DNA of 64,000 nt from Escherichia phage vB_EcoM_G50 (NC_054917.1), one strand, 5' to 3'. Counted from the first letter of the stretch, positions 2,448-18,584 are shown. Notes: generated by a model not told the origin, from the letters alone. Made by a program: numbers and translations.

Positions 2448-2979
2448 TATTGGCTCATCCATTCTTTACGAAGGTCAGCATTATCTCCCATGAGCATTTC
2501 AAAAAGCTCTTTCCAATTCTCAGGAAGTTTAACAACATCATATACTGGGTTTTGAATCATCTCACGATATTCAGATTTTTCCAAAGAGCCAAGTCCCTTA
2601 ATATAACGGATGCTATGTTTAGGTAGAGCATCTTTGGCACTCTCATATTCAGCGACTGTATAAAACCATTCTTGTTTTTTACCGACCTGAGCGATGATTA
2701 CAGGAGTTTTGACAAAGCGAATTCTTCCTTGTTCAAACAGTTCTGGCCAATTACTAAAAAATCCGAGCAGAGAAGGATAAATAGAACCTAATCCAATAAT
2801 CTCTTAATTATGAGGTATTTCTATGGATAGCCCGAAGGCTATCCATCGTGATCTGCGTCTGTCATAATAGCGACATTCGCATAGTTCATTGAAGAGGATT
2901 TAATAGAACGACGAACATTGTTCTGCAATTTATATTTTTTCATATCAACGCTAGAAGAATCAATTTTTACAAATTTCAT
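2447..2979 (-). CDS. 60: DNA topoisomerase II subunit gp60, translated across a 50-nt coding gap (ribosomal bypass)
   Basis: N-terminal 46 codons MKFVKIDSS...DADHDG end in GGA-TAG; translation resumes after landing GGA with LGSIYPSLLGFF...KEWMSQ; matches T4 gp60. Confidence 0.9.
2792..2841 (-). other. gene 60 translational bypass element: stop codon, UUCG hairpin and 50-nt gap ending in landing GGA
   Basis: Minus strand GGA UAG CCUUCGGGCUAUCCAUAGAAAUACCUCAUAAUUAAGAGAUUAUU GGA UUA; take-off GGA at 2842-2844, landing GGA at 2792-2794. Confidence 0.88.
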
Positions 2980-3778
2980 TATACACCTCATAGAACTTTT
3001 CATCAGGAATCCAACCGCGTTTAAATTCATTAAATGCTCGGCCGAATAATTTTGAATTCACAGTTATATTATTAACTGATTTCCATTTAGCAACTCCCGT
3101 TCGTTTATAATGATCGGGGTCATATTTCGTGACGTACCATTCATATAAATTTGGTATTAATTTTACAGCCTCTGGATTTGTCGCTGATTTATTATACCAT
3201 GGTTTCGCTTTTTCAAGTTCAGCTGCTTTTGCAGTAGCAGCAACAGTATTTCCAATACCAACTAATTTTTCAGCTTTAATGCGTGGATCATTAACATGAA
3301 GACGAAAAACTTCGCCCTTTTCATTTTTAAAGCATGTCATGCCTTTAATTCCAGGAAGCTTAACACCTTTATTAACACCGCACCATTCCTTTGGGTTAAA
3401 TGATCCTTTAATTAATAAGGCGCATTTACCCGATTTAATACTTCTCATTAAAACTTTATCTTTCATAAAGTTTTTTGACCATTCAGATACTGCTCTTTGA
3501 TGGTAAATTCTAGCAATTTCATATAATTTACTAGAACGTAAATATTTTTCAGTGTTTAACATTCTATTCATCGCATATGCCATTTCACGATTACGATGAA
3601 TTTTATATAGTAGAAAATGTGCTAAAAAGTGTTCACGAAAAGTCAGTTTCACCAAATTTTCTTTATCATCAGAACCTCCCATTGATCTTGGAAGGATATG
3701 ATGAATTTCACCCTTAAATTTAGAAACGCGGGTTTTACCCCGCACTATTAAGTCATTATAGATTTTTTCGTAATTCAC
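2960..3778 (-). mobile_element. mobA: HNH homing endonuclease (mobA-like) inserted between topoisomerase genes 39 and 60
   Basis: 272-aa ORF with HNH motif (EIHHILPRSMGG...NLV...REHFLAH); GTG start; overlaps end of gene 39 and start of gene 60. Confidence 0.8.
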
Positions 3779-5306
3779 CTACTGTTATCCATTTACCATT
3801 AATCTGTACTTCATCATTTTCATTTACGATAATTGTATCGCCATTTAGTTCGAAAGTAAACCACTCGCCATCTTCTTTTTCTTCAAACGCCTTTTCACCA
3901 AGAACTAATCCAGTGATTGCGCAAATGTCAAACAGTTCTTTGTTTTTAAGCATATCGGCATATGACATACCCCAACTGTTGAGAACTTTACCACGCAATG
4001 GATAACCACCATGAAGTTCTTTATCACGAACATCAATAAGATATCCGATAGCAGAATCACCCTCAGTCAAGAAAAGAGTAGTGTCAGCGTCTTTACCACA
4101 AAGATTCGCTTTAATATGTTTATGAACCTTAGCTTTAGAAGCCTTTTTAGCTGCTTTAGTTTCTGCTGCTTTTTCTGCCGCCAATTTACGAGCCAAGGCA
4201 GCTTCAATAATTGGCATCAGAATTGCTTCATTATTTAGAATAGCGCGTGAAATCTTTTTAGCATCAAGTTGAATATGACTACGGATTTCACCAAATGGAG
4301 AAGTCAAACGCTCTTTAGTTTGAGAATCAAATCGCATGTTTTTCATATCACGAACAAACATAACGATAGTCAAACATTCTTTAACGCGTGCTTTAGTTAC
4401 ATCAATTTTGAACTTGCGTTTGATTTGTGGAATAAGGTCTTCACAAATATCATCCATAACACAGTCAATGTGATGGCCACCATTCTTAGTATGAATGTTA
4501 TTGACGTATGTTAATTGACGAAAACCGTCGGGTGAACGACCAACCGCAATAGAACAATTTTCTTGTTCTTGAACGATAGCATGTTCATCATATTGGCGTG
4601 CATATTTCTTGAAATTACCCTGAACCTTTTTACCATTAAAGGTAAATTGAATATCAGGATAAACTACTGCAAGTGTCTGGAGACGATCTAGTGTAATGTC
4701 AAGATAAACCTGGGACAGCTCATTAGTTTCAAATGACATAAAATCAGGAATGAAAGTAACGCGAGTTCCTTTCCATTTTCCAGGAATATCTTCCCACGAT
4801 TTATTTTCCATGCCATTCGAGCAGCGAACTACAATATTATTTTGACCGTCGCCAGTTTCACCGACAAACATCACAGAAAAAATGTTAGTTAAACTAGAAC
4901 CAACACCGTTCATACCGCCAGTGACGCGTTCTTTATCATCACCGAAGTTACCACCTGCTTTTGGAATAGTCCATGCAGCAACAGGACCAGGAATTTCTTC
5001 ACCAGTAGGTGTTTTAACCATCGCTTGTGGAATACCGCGACCATTATCTTCAACTGTTACTTGATTGTTTTTAATAGTAACATTAATTTTATTCGCGAAT
5101 TTAAACTTAGTACGAATACCTTCATCTACTGAGTTATCGATAATTTCATCAATAAGCTTAACAAGACCAGGTACATACTGAACACTTTCCCATTTACCAA
5201 ACAGAAAGCGCTCATGCATTTCATTAGCAGAAGAGCCAATATACATGCCGCTACGCTTTTTGATATGTTCAATATCGCTCAGAATTTTAATTTCATTCTT
5301 AATCAT
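3756..5306 (-). CDS. 39: DNA topoisomerase II large subunit gp39 (GyrB-like ATPase)
   Basis: 516 codons from ATG at 5306 (track start 5309 is an upstream GTG); GHKL ATPase and toprim-like motifs; matches T4 gp39. Confidence 0.93.
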   Translation of the reverse strand: MIKNEIKILSDIEHIKKRSGMYIGSSANEMHERFLFGKWESVQYVPGLVKLIDEIIDNSVDEGIRTKFKFANKINVTIKNNQVTVEDNGRGIPQAMVKTPTGEEIPGPVAAWTIPKAGGNFGDDKERVTGGMNGVGSSLTNIFSVMFVGETGDGQNNIVVRCSNGMENKSWEDIPGKWKGTRVTFIPDFMSFETNELSQVYLDITLDRLQTLAVVYPDIQFTFNGKKVQGNFKKYARQYDEHAIVQEQENCSIAVGRSPDGFRQLTYVNNIHTKNGGHHIDCVMDDICEDLIPQIKRKFKIDVTKARVKECLTIVMFVRDMKNMRFDSQTKERLTSPFGEIRSHIQLDAKKISRAILNNEAILMPIIEAALARKLAAEKAAETKAAKKASKAKVHKHIKANLCGKDADTTLFLTEGDSAIGYLIDVRDKELHGGYPLRGKVLNSWGMSYADMLKNKELFDICAITGLVLGEKAFEEKEDGEWFTFELNGDTIIVNENDEVQINGKWITVGELRKNL

Positions 5307-5355
5307 CACTTATCCTCGTTTGGTTTCGGGAATATTATACTCCGGTAATCATAAA

Positions 5356-15789: not shown

Positions 15790-16035
15790 TTATTCACCAG
15801 TTACTTTCCACAAATCTTCATTTGCAGCAATCCATTCAGTACGTTGATTTTCTTCATATACTGTAGAATATGCTGCTTTTTCTGAAGGGAATGTCTGGTA
15901 ATGAGCGCCAGAAATTTTGTGAACGTCAGAATAAAGAGGGAAAGCTACAGAAATTTCCTTTCCTTCAATTTTCTTATTTCCATCTAATTTCTGCTCAAAT
16001 GTTTTAATATTAACATAACCGCGAGTACTAGCCAT
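15790..16035 (-). CDS. soc: small outer capsid protein Soc
   Basis: MASTRGYVNIKTFEQKLDG...; matches T4 Soc. Confidence 0.9.
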   Translation of the reverse strand: MASTRGYVNIKTFEQKLDGNKKIEGKEISVAFPLYSDVHKISGAHYQTFPSEKAAYSTVYEENQRTEWIAANEDLWKVTGE

Positions 16036-16117: not shown

Positions 16118-16636
16118 TTAATAACCTCGATCTTGACGCGCGAAATTTTCAGCATTTTTCAGGTAATACAGTTTAAAGATTTCTTCAGCAGTAAGACCAA
16201 GACCTTGGAACATATTCAGAACGAAATGGAGAATATCAATCATTTCAAATTTAATTTCCAACTGGTCTTGCGGAGACAAATCAGTAATCAGAGTTTCACG
16301 ACGTTCACCATGCTGCGACTTCCAAGGTTTCCATACAGCAGATGCATCTTTTTCACCATTACTCATACCACCGAGAGAAGTCAGAAGTTCACGGAATTCA
16401 TCGTCAATATAATCTTTCTGATTACGCAACCAATCAACAACTTCACCGGCAGTAGCCAAGTCATCAGGATGACGATTATATTCAGGTTTATCTTTAGCTA
16501 AACGAATCTGCAGAGATTTCTGCATGTCAAGCATAACCTGCAGCGGGTCTTTTTCATCACCGAGAATATCCCAATATTCATTTTGAGCTTTATCAGCGCC
16601 TTCGATCAGTTGACTACATTCGTTGAAATGTGGCAT
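16118..16636 (-). CDS. 56: dCTP pyrophosphatase gp56
   Basis: 172-aa ORF matching T4 gp56 as recalled. Confidence 0.88.
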   Translation of the reverse strand: MPHFNECSQLIEGADKAQNEYWDILGDEKDPLQVMLDMQKSLQIRLAKDKPEYNRHPDDLATAGEVVDWLRNQKDYIDDEFRELLTSLGGMSNGEKDASAVWKPWKSQHGERRETLITDLSPQDQLEIKFEMIDILHFVLNMFQGLGLTAEEIFKLYYLKNAENFARQDRGY

Positions 16637-16637
16637 G

Positions 16638-17288
16638 TTATTTTTCCTTTCTTATGAAGTTTTCTATCATATGTCTATAGCAGATATTAGGATAACCTGC
16701 CTTGACAGCTATTTTATTAAATTTTGTGCGCTTAGGTCTATTATTATAAACCCATAATTCATAAAGCGCATCATAACTATTCCATATTTCTCCTCGCCTA
16801 GGATTTGGTAAACCATATCGAGGCGAATTTTTACCGCTAAATCTTCCTTTTCGGGCTTTACTCATATTAGCCTTGGCTTCATCGGATATAATTTTACCTT
16901 TATGAGCTAGACGCATTTTGGCTTTAGTTTCTTCTGGAGTCTTTTTACCTTTAATCCATGACGGCTTGCCATATCTAGGATTATTTTCACCCGAGAAAAG
17001 AACAGAGTTTTGGATTTTAAGGGTTTCTATTAATCTACTTGTTAATTTAACACCTTTATTATATCGCATTAAATTTACAGCATAATGCAATCCTCTCACA
17101 TCTGGATATATTTTAGTTAATAATCTATGAGCTATAAAATGCTCACGCGCAGTTAACTCAACAAGATTGTTTTTGCCATCTGCTCCTCCCATACATCTAG
17201 GAATTATATGATGGCGTTCTTTATATCCGCCAAGATGCCGGCATTTAGCTTTTGTAATTAAAGCCGAGTAAATTTTTTGGTAATTCAC
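16638..17288 (-). mobile_element. HNH homing endonuclease (Mob family), 216 aa
   Basis: HNH motif ERHHIIPRCMGG...NLV...REHFIAH; repeated G.N.PRYG motifs; GTG start; N-terminus paralogous to mobA-like ORF at 2960-3778. Confidence 0.8.
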
Positions 17289-17321
17289 ATATATCCTTTC
17301 AATTCATGGGTTAGTAGATTA

Positions 17322-17346
17322 ATTATACAATAAATATATAAAGCAA
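17322..17346 (-). promoter_or_regulatory. MotA-box middle promoter upstream of the HNH gene
   Basis: Minus strand TTGCTTTA then 11 nt then TATAAT. Confidence 0.45.
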
Positions 17347-17358
17347 TAAGGAGGACAT

Positions 17359-17559
17359 ATGGTACAAAAATTAATGGCACTTGTTAATGCCATAAAAGGT
17401 AATAAAAAACGTATAGCTTTTACTATTTCTGCTATGGTAGGAATTTTACTCTGGAACTTTATTCTATCACCTGTTGCAATTGCGCATGGTATTAATATTC
17501 CAGTAGTTACTCTTGATACATTTGTAGATTTAGCATTTGCTTTAGTTGGGTTGATTTAA
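17359..17559 (+). CDS. small membrane protein, 66 aa, two predicted TM helices
   Basis: Only plus-strand ORF with a strong SD (TAAGGAGG, 4 nt before ATG); hydrophobic segments; convergent with gene 61, stop codons overlap. Confidence 0.5.
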   Translation: MVQKLMALVNAIKGNKKRIAFTISAMVGILLWNFILSPVAIAHGINIPVVTLDTFVDLAFALVGLI

Positions 17560-18584
17560 ATCTTAGCATATTTAGATAGCCGCATTTTAGCCATCAACCC
17601 CTGGGCAATATTATTTTTCATATATTCCATAATTTGTTCAGGGGTTGCACCTTCCTTTCTAATCATATCATTGACATCTTTTGATTTCCAGGGAGATTTA
17701 TCCCAAAACATAACCCTTTCTCCTGCATCAACTAATTTAGTCATTCGCTTAATAGTGTCAGGATGACGAGGTTCATTATCTAAAACCCACACACGTCTAT
17801 CTTTAAATGGAACAACTTCTAGGTCTAATTGACCACCCGTAATAGCTATACCATTTTCAATAAAAAGTGAATCTATAGGTCCTTCTAGAACATATACATC
17901 ACCATCTTTAACTCGTTCTACTCCATAGATTTTTGTTGCCTCAGGATAAGCTTTGATGGTGATATATTTTTGGGGAGCATCTTTCTTTAATGCACGTCCT
18001 TGAAAAGACTCAGCTTTTCCATTAGCATTATAAATTGGAATAACAAGACGAGGCTCAGAAATTTCCTTTTTGTATGTTCCCGGTGCTATGCTATTAACTA
18101 ATTTAGGCCATTCGGTTGTAAACCAAAGATATTTCCATTTATCCTTTGGAATACAACGAGCTTTTACATATTTTATAATTGGATGGTCTTCCGCCAGTTT
18201 ATCTAATCTAACACATGACGGAAGAGATTTAATTATTTTCTTCTCAGGTTGCTTAGGAAGTTCTTTAGGTTTTTCTACTGGACGACTTTTACCTTTTTCT
18301 TTTCTTATTTCAAAGATATACTCACGATATAAATCGGGTTCAAACTCCTTTAAATATATTCCGATTGGTGCATGATAGTTACAGTTATAACAATGAATAT
18401 TTCCTTCATTATTATCACCATAATACCATCCACGAGCTTTATTCTGGTCGGTTTTTGAATCTCCACAAACAGGACATCTAAACCGCAATTTAAAAGTTGA
18501 ACTATTATTTACTTGTGTGAATTTAGGTAAATGAGCTAATGCACGATACGCAAACTCATTATCAATCCAAGGTATTGATGACAT
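17556..18584 (-). CDS. 61: DNA primase gp61
   Basis: 342 aa; zinc ribbon CPVCGD...CYNCNYH; matches T4 gp61. Confidence 0.9.
   Translation of the reverse strand: MSSIPWIDNEFAYRALAHLPKFTQVNNSSTFKLRFRCPVCGDSKTDQNKARGWYYGDNNEGNIHCYNCNYHAPIGIYLKEFEPDLYREYIFEIRKEKGKSRPVEKPKELPKQPEKKIIKSLPSCVRLDKLAEDHPIIKYVKARCIPKDKWKYLWFTTEWPKLVNSIAPGTYKKEISEPRLVIPIYNANGKAESFQGRALKKDAPQKYITIKAYPEATKIYGVERVKDGDVYVLEGPIDSLFIENGIAITGGQLDLEVVPFKDRRVWVLDNEPRHPDTIKRMTKLVDAGERVMFWDKSPWKSKDVNDMIRKEGATPEQIMEYMKNNIAQGLMAKMRLSKYAKI

Follow-up and report, generated by a model that had tools for sequence, protein, structure and literature searches.

An HNH homing-endonuclease cassette and a conserved small open reading frame between genes 56 and 61 of Escherichia phage vB_EcoM_G50

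Two genes in the interval between genes 56 and 61

In Escherichia phage vB_EcoM_G50 (NC_054917.1), of which we analysed a stretch of 64,000 nucleotides (nt; hereafter the window), the interval between gene 56 and gene 61 holds two genes on opposite strands: a free-standing HNH homing-endonuclease gene encoding 216 amino acids (aa) from a GTG start (16638-17288, minus strand) and a conserved 66-aa open reading frame (ORF) for a small membrane protein (17359-17559, plus strand). The original prediction, made from the sequence of the window, had located both of them correctly between genes 56 and 61, and had read the arrangement as a mobile insertion in which the membrane peptide could be a passenger. 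Did these two genes arrive together, or does each have its own history? Our results indicate that the interval most probably combines two independent elements, a mobile HNH cassette and a resident conserved gene.

The distribution of the genes is the first evidence for this separation. Searches with tblastn recovered the 66-aa ORF in 691 phage records, to be compared with 184 for dam and 57 for the HNH gene. The latter was sought in 50,697 phage records and is always present as one copy, against 577-730 records that have the interval. Moreover, the interval exists in four states, with the orders 56, ORF, 61 in AR1 and RB32; 56, HNH, ORF, 61 in the window; 56, dam, ORF, 61 in T4; and 56, HNH, dam, ORF, 61 in ELT1, where dam sits between the HNH gene and the ORF. 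Because of this record distribution and these four states, we consider the ORF as part of the backbone, and the HNH gene and dam as separate variable cassettes. The proposal of a mobile insertion is thus sustained for the HNH gene and lost for the 66-aa ORF, which cannot be its passenger since it is found without the HNH gene in AR1, RB32 and T4. Indeed, of the two genes only the ORF occupies this position in standard T4.

The neighbouring genes are those of a T4-like backbone. Gene 56 (dCTPase/dUTPase; 16118-16636, minus strand) is both the neighbour and the putative target gene of the HNH enzyme, and gene 61 (DNA primase; 17556-18584, minus strand) converges on the 66-aa ORF, their stop codons overlapping by 4 nt, as had been predicted. 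Beyond gene 56 lies soc (15790-16035), separated from it by 82 base pairs (bp), where a spacer of about 80 bp free of any segF-like gene had been announced; T4 SegF gave no tblastn match in the window. T4 Dam gave none either, and no Dam ORF is present between genes 56 and 61 here, which agrees with the earlier statement that T-even phages carry dam in this interval, as T4 does, and that this one does not. Among the plus-strand ORFs of at least 40 aa lying in gaps between minus-strand ORFs, the 66-aa ORF is the sole one with both an ATG and a Shine-Dalgarno sequence, in line with the earlier description of it as the only credible plus-strand gene of the window. In this region the window shares about 97% identity with Tequatrovirus genomes such as vB_EcoM_G4498, whose RefSeq record lists on the minus strand soc, gene 56 (as nucleoside triphosphate pyrophosphohydrolase), a 'homing endonuclease' and DNA primase, with a plus-strand 'hypothetical protein' before the latter.

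Other occupants were seen in relatives. In phage DK-13 (locus L006, 2172-2921), a different HNH endonuclease (36% identical) lies between the small ORF and gene 61, and the interval is therefore a repeated landing site for endonuclease genes. A Tequatrovirus contig (L017, 1101-1661; also present as L012) has an extra 186-aa ORF with dam on one side and the small ORF on the other. Many relatives outside Tequatrovirus (L024, L027, L037, L040-L046 and L050) carry between genes 61 and 56 an ORF of 93-101 aa (MN..QHA.LKL.EECNEV...), which we read from its sequence as MazG-like; in L040-L046, where it is present, the small membrane ORF was not found.

The HNH cassette and its proposed homing

In all the genomes where it was found (Tequatrovirus, Mosigvirus, Jiaodavirus and VR5-like phages), the HNH gene lies directly upstream of gene 56. 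Its limits can be read from a block shared with the Mosigvirus SSE1 (16599-17306, minus strand), which shows only 2 differences in 708 nt with dense mismatches outside: the sliding identity is 1.00 within the block and falls to 0.37-0.80 around it, with 60-80% towards genes 56 and 61 and 37-58% over the 66-aa ORF. Three parts make up this block: the mobile cassette, some 38 nt from the 5' end of gene 56 that were co-converted with it, and a short piece of leader (17301-17306) which the backbone conserves in any case. It stops at 17306, short of the 66-aa ORF. The HNH copies of Klebsiella Jiaodavirus phages are 91% identical overall and mosaic, with nearly identical ends and a diverged middle. 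In both SSE1 and the Klebsiella phages, the HNH gene is accompanied by the resident version of the 66-aa ORF, specific to the genus. The identities indicate that genes have passed very recently between Tequatrovirus, Mosigvirus and the Jiaodavirus phages of Klebsiella.

The same heptamer marks both ends of the cassette. On the left, the three genera are alike in the alignment: a genus-specific leader runs to AATTGAAAGGA, and the cassette follows from TATATGTGAATTACC. The left GAAAGGA copy (17294-17300, minus strand) is the resident Shine-Dalgarno sequence of gene 56, now serving the HNH gene, whose GTG sits 7 nt after it. On the right, the HNH gene closes with AGA AAG GAA AAA TAA, by which GAAAGGA is rebuilt for gene 56, this copy (16645-16651, minus strand) overlapping the end of the HNH frame. 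The insertion is intergenic, between the leader and the ATG of gene 56 and not within an intron or intein, and gene 56 is intact. Furthermore, gene 56 begins with 34-38 nt of donor sequence (ATGCCACATTTCAACGAATGTAGTCAACTGATCG), after which the resident sequence returns. The first 34 nt of gene 56 with this HNH-linked allele ATGCCACATTTCAACGAATGTAGTCAACTGATCG (16603-16636, minus strand) are identical in HNH-bearing Tequatrovirus, Mosigvirus and Jiaodavirus, and could represent the altered, cleavage-resistant form of the homing target; HNH-free genomes of all genera have ATGGCNYAYTTT at the gene 56 start. When the window is compared with AR1 outside the insertion, the differences fall almost only at 16604-16637, and on the gene 56 flank only there.

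How is the cassette expressed? The MotA consensus, also given in the T4 record X01416, is (a/t)(a/t)TGCTT(t/c)A about 12 bp upstream of a TAnnnT -10 element. A site that fits this pattern of MotA-dependent middle promoters, TTGCTTTA-N11-TATAAT, lies upstream of the gene 56 unit (17322-17346, minus strand), with the core GCTTTA-N11-TATAAT at 17322-17344. This is the middle promoter that had been attributed to the HNH gene; it is indeed there, and yet it does not belong to the insertion, as it is identical in the HNH-free AR1 and RB32. Its counterpart in T4, a mot-box promoter, P(M)16.53, was described in 1984 upstream of gene 56, there named gene 69 (X01416). We infer that the cassette captured this resident promoter, which would now drive both the HNH gene and gene 56. 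Counted over the window, the looser pattern GCTTTA-N11-13-TANNNT has 22 occurrences (15 on the minus strand), where 4.0 are expected. One further site, GCTTTA-N13-TATAAT, lies in the 3' part of the HNH gene (16743-16767, minus strand), some 100 nt before the ATG of gene 56, and is kept in every HNH copy that we examined, even in the diverged versions of the Klebsiella phages and VR5. We propose this internal MotA-like site as a candidate replacement promoter for gene 56. This fits the habit of the T4 seg and mob genes, seven of which are promoter-less cassettes, some with embedded promoters for the displaced genes downstream (PMC2988022). In addition, a consensus scan detected on the minus strand (17374-17393) a hairpin with a T-run behind it, within codons 6-12 of the 66-aa ORF, a candidate terminator of gene 61 transcripts placed just before the middle promoter.

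The HNH protein itself belongs to a known type. It matches the 'homing endonuclease' family phrog_655 (E 3.7e-59) and the 'HNH endonuclease' family phrog_12434 (E 1.8e-12). In Pfam, NUMOD3 (PF07460) alone passes its threshold (29.4 bits for a cut-off of 20.4, E 7.4e-7), every HNH model staying below. No variation is seen at E24, H26, H27, N41, H50 and H54 in an alignment of 41 homologues, and the N-terminal two-thirds are common to 3028 database proteins with varied C-termini. The AlphaFold2 model (predicted local distance difference test, pLDDT, 84) places two strands (24-27 and 42-45) before a helix (47-60), that is a beta-hairpin plus helix, followed by helical NUMOD3 repeats and a well-predicted three-helix C-terminal domain, presumably DNA-binding. 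The best Foldseek matches of this model in the PDB are HNH domains, at an E of about 0.8 and hence not significant, and a PDB sequence search returned no homing endonuclease. As modelled, the domain order is that of the modular phage homing endonucleases. The gene is a Mob-type free-standing homing endonuclease, an uncharacterised addition to a known type whose 'homing endonuclease' label already stands in dozens of records. Several GenBank records name it 'MobE' or 'MobD', and a metagenome scan with the protein yielded three distant loci only.

From these features we propose the following course of homing. The promoter-less cassette, which has the gene 56 start codon on one side and the resident middle promoter and Shine-Dalgarno sequence of that gene on the other, would be transcribed from the resident MotA-dependent promoter and translated from its GTG by means of the resident GAAAGGA. 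In a mixed infection, the enzyme would nick or cut the HNH-free allele at the insertion point or within about 35 nt of it, in the conserved AATTGAAAGGAAAAATAATGGCNCAYTTTAAYGAATGT at the gene 56 start. Recombinational repair would then copy the cassette together with 34-38 nt of donor gene 56, and the donor allele (ATGCCACATTTC..., with a 2-nt insertion before the ATG) would be resistant. The MotA-like site within the cassette would probably restore a promoter close to gene 56.

The extent of the block, from GAAAGGA to about 34-38 nt into gene 56, suggests the gene 56 start region as the homing target. That the cut itself falls nearby is suggested by the short tracts left in three independent transfers and by the strong conservation of AATTGAAAGGAAAAATAATGGCNCAYTTTAAYGAATGT across the subfamily; T4 MobE provides the model for a nick or break so close to the insertion point. 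On balance we lean towards a cut site near the gene 56 start. Several points weigh against it. A cut so close would be unusual, and later recombination could have trimmed the tracts. The HNH-linked gene 56 allele is also found in a few HNH-free genomes, and the linkage is not absolute. We had at first regarded codon 8 of gene 56 (AGT versus TCA) as the key resistance change, a candidate which we dropped when AGT was found in many HNH-free genomes as well.

The known free-standing T-even endonucleases cut far from their own genes, hundreds to thousands of bp away for those characterised (PMC2988022), and for this reason we kept the rival possibility of an enzyme with a remote cut site, in gene 61 or in another part of gene 56, in the manner of SegF and SegG, or of one that is now inactive and carried by linkage. 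That the start is a weak GTG and that the cassette has no promoter of its own, both of which suggest low expression, would agree with it, as would the frameshift-type fusion seen in SSE1. However, a distant cut would drag long donor tracts, and in three independent genera the shared tract is bounded by GAAAGGA on one side and, on the other, by a point 34-38 nt inside gene 56; as for inactivity, all catalytic residues are intact and the 99.8% nucleotide identity between genera argues for recent mobility. We thus regard a distant cut or an inactive enzyme as rather improbable, and retain a cleavage near the gene 56 start as our working proposal. For this proposal the natural data delimit the HNH mobile unit to the nucleotide, and the predicted target of 35-40 nt at the translation start of an essential gene is easily testable; a characterised enzyme would enlarge the poorly studied Mob group.

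Some individual loci deserve mention. In the HNH-free IMG/VR loci L018 and L033, and partly in L034 and L030, the HNH-linked allele GAAAGGAAAAATAA(C/T)ATGCCACATTTC comes right after the phage's own leader; it is possibly the footprint of a cassette loss by recombination between the two GAAAGGA copies, or else a resistant allele. In SSE1 (a Shigella phage, MK639187; L061, 1219-2391), a 1-nt deletion in an A-run, at the equivalent of window position 16641, removes the HNH stop codon and fuses the HNH protein in frame with the gene 56 product (gp56; ...FIRKENNMPHFNEC...), the record showing a single 1173-nt 'homing endonuclease' coding sequence. This fusion could be real or a sequencing error. 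Finally, gp56 of the window is only 74% identical to that of T4 (L004), and mosaic gene 56 alleles were seen in some contigs (gp56 compared with L004, L009 and L011). Both the divergence and the mosaicism are consistent with repeated endonuclease-driven exchange at gene 56.

The 66-aa open reading frame

The 66-aa ORF is an orthologue of RB32ORF030w and RB69ORF029w (phrog_2024). T4 has a copy of it (NC_000866, 17738-17938), in the 309-bp gap between dam and gene 61, that is identical to the window version at 64 of 66 residues. We found it annotated neither in NC_000866 and AF158101 nor in the 1984 T4 records, and the exact T4 version of the protein has no NCBI accession. Synonymous changes prevail within Tequatrovirus, where the ratio of nonsynonymous to synonymous substitution rates (dN/dS) is 0.1-0.2, which indicates that the ORF is under purifying selection. 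Towards Mosigvirus and Gaprivervirus the amino-acid identity is 44-57% and dS is saturated. Among 42 loci anchored on gp56, most genera have an ORF of 63-74 aa converging on the end of gene 61, with an ATG, an AGGAGG and the invariant residues W32, N33, P38, G44 and P48. Frame, length, ATG and AGGAGG are kept even at 30-57% amino-acid identity, where the DNA can no longer be aligned. Because of this selection, of the frame and signals kept across genera, and of the lack of any Rfam family match in a scan of the interval, the comparison identifies the 66-aa ORF as a real gene, an old resident of the T4-like backbone unconnected with the cassette.

Outside this context the family was not encountered. 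An exhaustive HMMER profile search found it nowhere else and added only three clusters at 50% identity, besides spurious matches to repetitive proteins such as P0032, and a word-seeded protein search returned close relatives only. The protein has no Pfam, NCBIfam or PADLOC match, and we found nothing relevant on the ORF in the literature, including T4 ribosome profiling and start-site maps. In the Gaprivervirus-like loci L023, L025 and L048 (about 2012-2418), two tandem paralogues are present, one of the MLKLSSLIQAIKG type and one of the MGTLFYQIWKL type, the second having no promoter motif of its own.

The expression signals may point to late transcription. The strong Shine-Dalgarno sequence TAAGGAGG (17347-17354, plus strand), which the original prediction had pointed out, has its counterpart, AGGAGG or GGAGG, in almost all members of the family. 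Upstream of it, AATAAATA (17329-17336, plus strand) agrees with the T4 late (gp55) consensus TATAAATA, located at -13 to -6, at 7 of 8 positions, and would place the transcription start near 17342. It is the variant with A at -13, a base found at this position in 9 of 50 listed T4 late promoters (PMC2988020), and position -13 is poorly conserved in relatives. In every example from Tequatrovirus, Mosigvirus and Gaprivervirus, and in most of the others, the motif xATAAATA precedes the ATG by 16-22 nt, even though the surrounding DNA is unrelated, and the two Tequatrovirus contexts, with and without dam, both keep it. Given this conservation and the documented A(-13) variant, we think it somewhat probable that the ORF is transcribed late from a gp55-type promoter starting near 17342, with a 17-nt leader. 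Other observations count against a late promoter. Nolan et al. (2006) predicted none before RB69ORF029w; the first base of the T4 motif is G, a rarer deviation; and X01416 (L063, 613-641) places at the same spot, on the opposite strand, a putative early promoter for dam, P(E)17.40. The latter faces the promoter and Shine-Dalgarno region of the small ORF, so that, if both are real, the divergent signals overlap.

The protein had been announced with two transmembrane (TM) segments, and this was not supported. Its hydropathy profile has one clear hydrophobic span (residues 19-42), and a single TM (21-41) was predicted for the RB69 orthologue RB69ORF029w (Nolan et al. 2006). The AlphaFold2 model (pLDDT 82) shows helices at 2-12, 16-42 and 52-63, the last of which, with its 12 residues, is too short to cross the membrane. 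The model and the 2006 prediction led us to reject a two-TM hairpin. The predicted shape is that of a short basic amphipathic N-terminal helix, a membrane-spanning helix at about 16-42, a conserved loop (HG.N.P) and a C-terminal helix, probably corresponding to a protein that crosses the inner membrane once and has a cytoplasmic N-terminus.

What such a protein might do is more speculative. Its conserved motif is WN(F/Y/L)...P.A...G..(L/I/V)P.V..(D/E), and the conservation of polar and proline residues in and just after the TM helix suggests a specific membrane-protein partner. A late role at the envelope, such as lysis timing or exclusion, would be a low-confidence guess, and any specific function that we could name for the ORF remains doubtful. 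Our tentative proposal, which we do not rate as probable, is that of an overlooked late gene of the T4 group whose micro-protein would bind a host or phage membrane protein through WN...P...G...P and so control a late envelope event; this event may be the timing or inhibition of lysis, a late exclusion of superinfecting phages, the membrane-bound initiation of proheads or the escape from a host defence that acts at the membrane.

A holin-like or lysis protein is quite unlikely. The protein is small and membrane-embedded, with a probable late promoter, and the UniRef entry of a close relative (P0025) is named 'Holin'. Nevertheless, all remaining records are 'hypothetical' and the domain searches cited above were blank; there is only one TM helix, and the hallmarks of holins, a charged hydrophilic C-terminus and linkage to lysis genes, are missing, as the C-terminus (...AFALVGLI) is hydrophobic and the neighbours are replication and nucleotide-metabolism genes. 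Besides, T4 already has the holin T, the antiholin RI and spanins.

It is more unlikely still that the ORF is no gene at all, and that its conservation derives from the gene 61 terminator, the dam and gene 56 promoters or some origin-related sequence. The minus-strand hairpin and T-run in its 5' part, the promoter region overlapping its upstream sequence and its absence from the T4 reference annotation could be taken in this sense, but neither the low dN/dS with its dominant synonymous changes, nor the frame, length, ATG and AGGAGG that persist in unalignable DNA, nor the five invariant residues, the two tandem Gaprivervirus paralogues and the blank Rfam scan would then be expected.

Least credible of all is a joint insertion of the HNH gene and the ORF in the place of dam, the peptide being carried along as a toxin, holin or exclusion factor: the two genes are indeed adjacent and divergent around a shared promoter region, and dam is absent here and present in T4, but the model is already refuted by a distribution in which the ORF far outnumbers the HNH gene, accompanies dam in T4 and neither gene in AR1 and RB32, is left out of the transferred block and retained in its genus-specific form by SSE1 and the Klebsiella phages, and is parted from the HNH gene by dam in ELT1.

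As a conserved hypothetical protein the 66-aa product was already known, and the noteworthy point is rather its absence from the T4 reference annotation, from which, if our reading is true, a gene has been missed for 40 years. Missing from NC_000866 and AF158101, it is invisible to the transcriptomes, proteomes and screens that use this annotation. Annotating it would be cheap, and could help to assign a function to a family present in about 700 sequenced phages. Neither this finding nor that on the HNH gene overturns current understanding.

Comparison with known systems

For the small ORF the comparison is brief: RB69ORF029w, RB32ORF030w and phrog_2024 are of the same family and share its convergent position, with no difference that we could note, and all are hypothetical proteins.

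For the HNH gene, several systems offer partial parallels. In T4, SegF is a GIY-YIG endonuclease encoded between soc and gene 56 that targets gene 56 (PMC2988022, Table 1). The likeness resides in a free-standing endonuclease gene that flanks gene 56 and has, or in the window would have, gene 56 as its target. The nuclease family and the side of gene 56 are different, and SegF is absent from the window.

Modular phage homing endonucleases such as I-HmuI and I-TevI consist of a nuclease, a NUMOD3-type linker and a helix-turn-helix. The window HNH protein follows the same order, with a nuclease, NUMOD3 repeats and, according to the model, a C-terminal three-helix DNA-binding domain. It differs from them in not being intron-encoded, and has no significant match to a solved homing endonuclease.

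Another relative lies in the window itself, the mobA-like ORF at 2960-3778. The paralogy that had been noticed between the two N-termini is well founded, the first 92 aa being 49% identical (E 8e-23) with the same GTG-MNY(Q/E)KIY start, whereas the C-terminal 180 aa of the mobA-like protein are unrelated and its gene adjoins gene 39, the T4 mobA position. This ORF (minus strand) is intact, with 272 aa and a GTG start, and overlaps by 23 nt the start of a 517-aa ORF (3756-5309); the same overlap length is reported for T4 mobA in the Edgell review.

A further parallel is T4 MobE, a promoter-less endonuclease gene whose product nicks the 5' region of the gene downstream (PMC2790892). The window HNH protein shares its N-terminal HNH module, the best T4-type matches, at the nrdA/nrdB position, being about 45% identical over 76% of the query. 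It would also share its mode of life: a promoter-less gene, dependent on upstream transcription, that sits just upstream of the gene attacked at its 5' region. The differences concern the locus, which is nrdA-nrdB for MobE and the 56/61 interval here, and the C-terminal half, since only the N-terminal two-thirds can be aligned; with another C-terminal half, the DNA specificity is presumably different. The proposed target also sets the window enzyme apart, since it would be found at the start of gene 56, no more than about 35 nt from the insertion point.

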